The position numbers and the translations under genes are program-made. A DNA stretch of 35,452 nucleotides from a virus. Its lineage: Duplodnaviria; Heunggongvirae; Uroviricota; Caudoviricetes. The DNA lies in the IMG/VR virus record IMGVR_UViG_2563366975_000004. One strand, 5' to 3'. This document shows positions 19,277 through 19,510 of the stretch, one piece after another; positions within the stretch are counted from its first letter, which is position 1, and each line of letters begins with the position of its first letter. The notes beneath the pieces were generated by a model. The model saw nothing but the letters and a program-made list of their open reading frames with translations. It ran no database searches and had not been told where the DNA came from.

Positions 19277-19352
19277 GGCCCTTTAGCTCAGTGGTGAGAG
19301 CGAGCGACTCATAATCGCCAGGTCGCTGGTTCAAATCCAGCAAGGGCCACCA
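19277..19352 (+). tRNA. tRNA with CAU anticodon (Met or Ile2/lysidine type; ileZ-like)
   Basis: Cloverleaf by eye: acceptor ggccctt/aagggcc, anticodon loop ctCATaa, T-arm gctgg-ttcaaat-ccagc, 3' CCA. Confidence 0.8.
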
Positions 19353-19359
19353 TCACATA

Positions 19360-19436
19360 CCGCCATTAGCTCATCGGGATAGAGCGCCAGCCTTCGAAGC
19401 TGGCTGCGCGGGGTTCAAGTCCCCGATGGCGGTCCA
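19360..19436 (+). tRNA. tRNA-Arg (anticodon UCG)
   Basis: Acceptor ccgccat/atggcgg, anticodon loop ctTCGaa, T-arm cgggg-ttcaagt-ccccg, 3' CCA. Confidence 0.8.
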
Positions 19437-19449
19437 TTATCTGCATCAT

Positions 19450-19510
19450 GCGTTGTTAGCTCAGCCGGACAGAGCAATTGCCTTCTAAGCAGCTGTGGTT
19501 GCACTCCTGT
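19450..19510 (+). pseudogene. tRNA-Arg(UCU)-like gene with degenerate 3' half
   Basis: 5' acceptor, D-arm (agctcagccggacagagc) and anticodon loop ctTCTaa are intact but no complementary 3' acceptor strand or CCA; followed by a G/T-rich repetitive tract. Confidence 0.4.

Follow-up and report, generated by a model that had tools for sequence, protein, structure and literature searches.

A truncated argO gene in a lambdoid prophage tRNA cluster, very probably cut by an internal 654-bp deletion reaching into a DUF3927 gene

The tRNA cluster and its genomic setting

We analyzed a 35,452-nucleotide stretch of caudoviral DNA (IMG/VR record IMGVR_UViG_2563366975_000004; henceforth, the window). The window is collinear with a lambdoid prophage of E. 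coli NCCP15648. Its genes run in the order int/xis, exo, dicB, immunity and replication genes, hokD, RusA, Q, methylase and tRNAs, and continue with DUF3927, an IraM-like gene, a SASA esterase, holin, lysozyme, terminase and head genes (Table 1). The tRNA cluster sits in the accessory region between Q and the lysis genes. It comprises elements with the anticodons CAU, UCG (Arg) and UCU (Arg) on one strand, with Q upstream and the holin and lysozyme genes downstream in the matching prophage; of the third member, only a remnant is left. A terminator scan placed a terminator-like hairpin at 17686-17701, downstream of Q.

Table 1. Features of the window, in order of position
Feature	Position	Strand	Basis and remarks
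C4 antisense RNA	4987-5074	-	Rfam, above gathering score
isrK	5099-5175	-	Rfam, above gathering score
DicF	5415-5466	-	Rfam, above gathering score
sok antitoxin RNA	14577-14748	+	Rfam, above gathering score; adjoins hokD in the matching prophage
Late antiterminator Q gene	16782..17603	+	RefSeq 'antitermination protein' on the matching prophage
DNA methyltransferase gene	18178..19227	+	Pfam N6_N4_Mtase, E = 6e-44; RefSeq; directly upstream of the tRNA cluster
ileZ, intact tRNA, anticodon CAU	19277..19352	+	ARAGORN; Rfam 72.5 bits; RefSeq; Stx2a_F723 record
argN, intact tRNA-Arg, anticodon UCG	19360..19436	+	ARAGORN; Rfam 58.4 bits; Stx2a_F723 record
argO remnant (tRNA-Arg, UCU), first 42 nt, pseudogene	19450..19491	+	42/42 identity to intact argO; ARAGORN negative; Rfam 14.2 bits
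Presumed deletion junction	19491..19492	+	BLAST flank ends; L008 position 846 joined to 1501, 654 bp lost
DUF3927 gene remnant	19492..19611	+	Pfam PF13064, E = 7e-11; comparison with the intact 54-aa L008 gene
STnc100 sRNA, first copy	19700-19893	+	Rfam RF02076, 138 bits
STnc100 sRNA, second copy	20169-20357	+	Rfam RF02076, 132.5 bits
IraM-like ORF, 111 aa	20383-20718	-	Anti-adapter protein IraM in RefSeq relatives; no Pfam match
istB-like ORF, 251 aa	21661-22416	-	Within the ~2.4 kb insertion
istA-like ORF, 499 aa	22413-23912	-	Within the ~2.4 kb insertion

We compared the window with related loci, chief among them a prophage of E. coli 83972 (NZ_CP058220; locus L008). Downstream synteny is kept, with two STnc100 copies followed by the esterase in both; L008 has an AsxR match in addition to its two STnc100 copies. 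In the window both STnc100 copies have a strong terminator hairpin at their end (19865-19884 and 20327-20348). STnc100 is related to the PasD sRNAs according to a 2026 preprint. The IraM-like ORF, absent from L008, is located after the second STnc100 copy and before the esterase gene. The SASA/nanS-p esterase gene of the window is interrupted by an insertion of ~2.4 kb at about 21602-24004 (boundaries from BLAST against locus L014); the NCCP15648 prophage, otherwise collinear, has it uninterrupted (618 aa). From its istA/istB-like pair, the insertion is a putative IS21-family element.

ARAGORN called exactly two tRNA genes in the 35-kb window, with anticodons CAT and TCG (Arg). Both calls are full cloverleaves that exceed the gathering score of the Rfam tRNA model (RF00005), which is 29, and both genes encode CCA. 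The two intact tRNAs of the original prediction thus stand at the positions that it gave. We use the names of the three tRNA genes in the Stx2a_F723 phage record, ileZ, argN and argO. ARAGORN labels the CAU tRNA as Met from the anticodon alone. RefSeq gives tRNA-Ile for the identical sequence, which the Stx2a_F723 record names ileZ, and by this annotation the gene is predicted to encode an ileZ-type, lysidine-dependent tRNA-Ile2. It is 100% identical over 76 nt in all loci compared.

The third element is the first 42 nucleotides of argO

The third element reads GCGTTGT TA GCTC AGCCGGACA GAGC A ATTGC CTTCTAA GCA from 19450. These are the 5' strand of the acceptor stem (GCGTTGT), a D-arm (GCTC/GAGC), the 5' strand of the anticodon stem (ATTGC), the anticodon loop (CTTCTAA) and, in GCA, three nucleotides of the 3' strand of the anticodon stem. 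A D-arm and an anticodon arm can therefore form, the latter from three native pairs and a chance G-U pair. All 42 nucleotides are identical to the 5' part of intact argO in five related loci (L004, L007, L008, L010 and L011), and 41 of 42 to argO of the Stx2a phage F723; this degree of identity identifies the element as argO by homology and not by chance. The homology ends after 19491, within the 3' strand of the anticodon stem.

Nothing of the other half was found. Allowing up to three mismatches, a search of all 35 kb located neither the T-arm and acceptor 3' strand that should follow (ACTGGTTCGAATCCAGTACAACGC) nor the complement ACAACGC with a T-arm, and there is no discriminator base with CCA. 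A split or rearranged argO gene was rejected on this window-wide search. The element contains no T-arm with a GTTCGAATC-type loop: in a permissive Rfam search its alignment spans only model positions 10-42 of 71, with 14.2 bits and E = 3, compared with 70.1 bits for intact argO of L008. The original description of the element as an intact 5' half lacking the 3' acceptor strand and CCA agrees with both the argO identity and the window-wide absence of the 3' half.

We considered whether the element could be an intact tRNA of non-canonical structure (armless, split or intron-bearing) that software misses, the outcome that the original prediction had named as counting against it. The D-arm and four anticodon-stem pairs that can form, together with the UCU loop, speak for such a gene. 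However, no acceptor 3' strand, T-arm or CCA occurs in the window, ARAGORN made no call at 19450-19491, and it found no third tRNA in any of the 31 fetched loci that share the junction (described below). The covariance score lies far under the threshold (14.2 against 29), and the sequence after the break is DUF3927 coding sequence, homologous to a gene that lies 654 bp farther off in relatives. We rejected this candidate on the missing 3' parts, the negative ARAGORN results and the low covariance score, and give it almost no credence.

A tRNA without acceptor stem and T-arm is not a substrate for RNase P, for CCA-dependent steps or for arginyl-tRNA synthetase. Because neither part can form here, the argO remnant is presumably an inert pseudogene that is neither matured by RNase P nor charged.

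A segment of 654 bp separates the two sides of the junction in relatives

Every BLAST match to the left flank stops at 19491. Matches of the right flank to L008 and to the corresponding prophages of E. coli DETEC-S792 and MS8324 (L009 and L010) begin at 19492, which is position 1501 of the locus. In L008 coordinates, the argO remnant is 805-846 (42/42), the window from 19492 aligns to 1501 onward with two mismatches in the first 45 nt, and 847-1500, 654 bp, is missing. The original prediction had proposed alignment with the ileZ-argN-argO clusters of Stx phages as a way to find the breakpoint; in that alignment homology runs from 19200 and ends exactly at 19491.

The three prophages reveal the ancestral layout. 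Their genes are ordered methylase, ileZ, argN, intact argO, a TerB-family gene (143 aa), DUF3927 (54 aa) and an esterase of the SASA (nanS-p) type, and the same argO-TerB-DUF3927 block occurs in O157 strain 86-24 and two other strains (L011-L013). The gap takes in the 3' half of argO (the rest of the anticodon stem, variable loop, T-arm, acceptor 3' strand and CCA), a terminator-like hairpin (GGCTCGCTTTTGCGGGCC, then a T-run, at L008 896-913), the intergenic leader, all 143 codons of the TerB-family gene and codons 1-7 of DUF3927. In L008 the GTG start of DUF3927, also inside the missing segment, overlaps the TerB stop codon as GTGA. A search of the ancestral segment for other Rfam families, and thus for a possible lost sRNA, returned only the argO tRNA.

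These observations fit a single event. One deletion of 654 bp would have joined position 42 of argO to codon 8 of the downstream DUF3927 gene, and the DUF3927 start, translationally coupled to TerB, would have been lost with it. The proposal that a deletion or recombination had removed the 3' end of the third tRNA is borne out by this collinearity with intact-argO relatives minus 654 bp. We infer the deletion from collinearity with relatives rather than from a sister pair: among the loci compared, no ancestor near-identical on both flanks was recovered, and the best loci with the intact layout share about 90-96% identity with the window on the left and, in the first ~200 nt to the right of the junction, about 93-96%. 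The junction has no microhomology (left parent ...AAGCA/ATCGG, right parent ...GTCTG/GCTGTGG, the slash marking the break), and no mobile element was found at it.

The same joint could have arisen without internal deletion, by illegitimate recombination between two phages, one giving Q, the methylase and the tRNAs and the other giving DUF3927 and what lies downstream. The left flank is closest to Stx-type clusters (98.1% identity to Stx2a_F723, against 95.9% to L008, the nearest intact-layout locus), the right flank departs from L008 beyond about 200 nt, down to 79% over 509 nt, and the junction occurs beside differing argN states, a sign that recombination around the cluster clearly happens. 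Yet many prophages have both endpoints in this order and orientation with 654 bp between them: 790 genomes carry the intact argO-TerB-DUF3927 block at a coverage of at least 80%. Subsequent homologous exchange inside the 100%-conserved ileZ and argO 5' sequences also accounts for the differing left flanks. Because the endpoints are collinear in many prophages and synteny is the same on both sides, one deletion is more parsimonious than a mosaic joint, which we regard as improbable.

Half of a tRNA gene also calls to mind an attachment site, here a relic of the integration of another element into argO. Elements often integrate into tRNA genes, and many islands are flanked by partial tRNA copies. 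However, integration normally duplicates the 3' part of the tRNA and leaves one copy intact, whereas only the 5' part survives here. No integrase or foreign element adjoins the junction, and its right side is the usual downstream neighbor minus 654 bp. On these grounds we rejected the attachment-site relic, whose probability we place close to nil.

We therefore return to an internal deletion, and consider it very probable that the locus is an ileZ-argN-argO cluster whose argO was cut by a 654-bp deletion into DUF3927. The breakpoint had been predicted to mark the start of the downstream moron region. It does not: in the intact-argO relatives the accessory region begins right after argO (hairpin, TerB, DUF3927), and the deletion extends on its right to 21 nt into DUF3927, which comes second among the genes there, so that the event was an internal deletion.

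The sequence after the break is a probably decaying DUF3927 remnant

The right side of the junction matches the DUF3927 profile (PF13064) with 42.4 bits against a cut-off of 25. The match spans only profile positions 10-39 of 53, short of a complete gene, and the first seven codons (MTVKMRL), including the GTG start, are gone. Relative to L008, one G is also missing near 19587/19588 (GTGGTGGTT to GTGTGGTT). This -1 frameshift leads to an early TGA at 19609-19611, and the frame ends in ...AGVWLLLSRC instead of ...AGVVVVAFPLLKKKASGD as in L008. RefSeq annotates only a 28-codon piece of this frame (19525-19611, + strand) as 'DUF3927 family protein' WP_106104550.1. By comparison with L008, we read this 28-aa protein as a 5'-truncated, -1 frameshifted remnant. 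The piece starts at an internal ATG that lacks a well-spaced Shine-Dalgarno sequence. It is likely not translated, although RefSeq annotates it as a protein. The remnant is probably decaying as well, because the frameshift arose after the deletion (see below).

The tract downstream of the half-tRNA had been described as G/T-rich and repetitive. In fact Tandem Repeats Finder, at a minimum score of 30, reported no tandem repeats in it (ttgtttctggtggtgatggtgg, 19510-19531), so the tract is not repetitive; it encodes LFLVVMV, part of the hydrophobic N-terminal segment of the DUF3927 ORF. Its richness in G and T reflects the codons for LLLFLVVMV. Within it, TCTGGTGG at 19515-19522 (+ strand), 24 nt to the right of the junction, matches the Chi octamer GCTGGTGG at seven of eight positions. 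The intact L008 copy of DUF3927 has the same near-match, which is therefore probably nothing more than coding sequence.

The junction is widespread and predates the frameshift

We searched for the junction in other genomes. A 90-nt junction-spanning query had matches at a coverage of at least 80% in 325 of 5426 complete E. coli genomes (roughly 6%), and the junction was also present in four phage records (vB_EcoS-640R1 and relatives). In IMG/VR, 30 contigs had the exact 23-nt junction string, and among one-genome-per-species representatives only E. albertii NBRC 107761 did. We fetched these 31 junction loci, the 30 contigs and E. albertii. Their tRNA content was ileZ and argN in 28 and ileZ only in three.

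At least three forms of argN occur beside the allele: that of the window, one that differs from it by 4-5 mismatches, and a decayed gene. The tRNA region of vB_EcoS-640R1 is 99.5% identical to L004, which has a decayed argN and an intact argO, and its right flank is 100% identical to the window. Because its left side matches L004 and its right side the window, this phage points to a probable later homologous exchange within the conserved tRNA sequences. In four of the 31 junction loci (L035, L036, L040 and L044) DUF3927 is still in its unshifted frame. The deletion therefore preceded the frameshift, an order that fits the decay of a gene already without a start codon.

Sister prophages have lost argN rather than argO (L002 2616-2715, L004 793-892, L011 1101-1200 and L007 796-892). 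In L002, L004 and L011 the acceptor ends are kept and the interior is replaced (...GCTTATCAGGAAGAGCAGACGACACGATAACAGGG...), a widespread form; in L007 the arms are point-mutated. ARAGORN called neither form. A decayed argN is combined with the truncated argO in vB_EcoS-640R1, L015, L019 and L042, which keep ileZ alone.

Consequences for decoding and transcription

The two intact genes, ileZ and argN, presumably still supplement the decoding of the rare codons AUA and CGA, respectively. The long ORFs of the window contain 7.1 AGA and 4.7 AGG per thousand codons; both values are above the E. coli average of roughly 2 for AGA and 1-1.5 for AGG. Prophages with the junction have thus lost their own AGA/AGG decoder though their genes still use these codons, and the decoding of AGA and AGG would now depend on host tRNAs.

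Transcription beyond the cluster may also have changed. Now that the terminator-like hairpin downstream of argO is missing, the nearest strong terminator that the terminator scan found ahead on the plus strand is that of the first STnc100 copy. It is consequently plausible, judging from terminator positions, that transcripts of the tRNA operon now read through to 19865-19884.

Such a fusion of the tRNA operon to the STnc100 region raises the idea that the retained 5' half of argO has been co-opted. It might yield a stable tRNA-half-like RNA, or serve the downstream DUF3927 and STnc100 transcripts as a structured leader or processing signal. The loss of the hairpin, which makes read-through into the sRNA region plausible, is in keeping with this idea, as are the wide spread of the allele and its presence in records of induced or isolated phages. 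Against it, the remnant has no excess folding stability: the 101 nt around it are less stable than shuffled sequences (z = +1.67), and no alternative structure was found in the remnant and the 50 nt downstream. Its conservation is no more than expected of a recent shared allele and is indistinguishable from neutral retention. We judge co-option to be very unlikely; were it true, prophage sRNA dosage would be altered in roughly 6% of complete E. coli genomes.

The truncated argO matters little outside annotation and the archaeology of phage genomes. It has four modest uses. The 23-nt junction (GCCTTCTAAGCA/GCTGTGGTTGC, the slash marking the joint) is an exact, easily scored marker of one prophage lineage in E. 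coli and E. albertii. The RefSeq 28-aa "DUF3927 family protein" is exposed as a truncated and frameshifted remnant. The loci together illustrate the stepwise erosion of a tRNA cluster and the adjoining accessory genes, with argO cut here, argN decayed in sisters, and both lost in some. The fourth is a view of prophages that have lost their AGA/AGG decoder though they still use both codons.

Comparison with known systems

In our searches of the literature on ileZ/argN/argO and DUF3927 we found no published description of this argO/DUF3927 junction. The cluster itself is of a familiar type. Its gene order, spacing and position downstream of Q are the same as in the 933W-type ileZ-argN-argO cluster of Stx2a_F723 (AP012533), with 98.1% identity from the start of ileZ to argO position 42. 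The 933W tRNA genes have reportedly been linked to the supply of tRNAs for rare codons. Unlike Stx2a_F723, the window has an argO cut after nucleotide 42, has no stx genes after it, and carries the cluster fused to a DUF3927 remnant. The tRNA complement also differs between Stx2 phage subtypes, with three tRNAs in 2a, 2c and 2d and only Met and Arg in 2e (PMC7366253).

The closer counterparts in flanking genes and their order are non-Stx lambdoid prophages of the L008 type (methylase-ileZ-argN-argO-TerB-DUF3927-STnc100-nanS-p). Like L008, the window has an identical 5' half of argO, a DUF3927 homologous from codon 8 and two STnc100 copies downstream. Unlike L008, it lacks 847-1500, has the -1 frameshift in DUF3927 and has the IraM-like gene.

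Decaying prophage tRNA clusters likewise lose part of a cloverleaf without compensating sequence, and sister prophages show independent decay of argN (L002, L004 and L011; L007). In contrast to gradual decay by point mutation, argO of the window appears to have been lost by one defined deletion that took protein-coding DNA with it. The locus is thus an ordinary and widespread deletion scar, a real tRNA pseudogene in a known phage tRNA cluster, and a precisely defined instance of a type already known, the prophage tRNA pseudogene.
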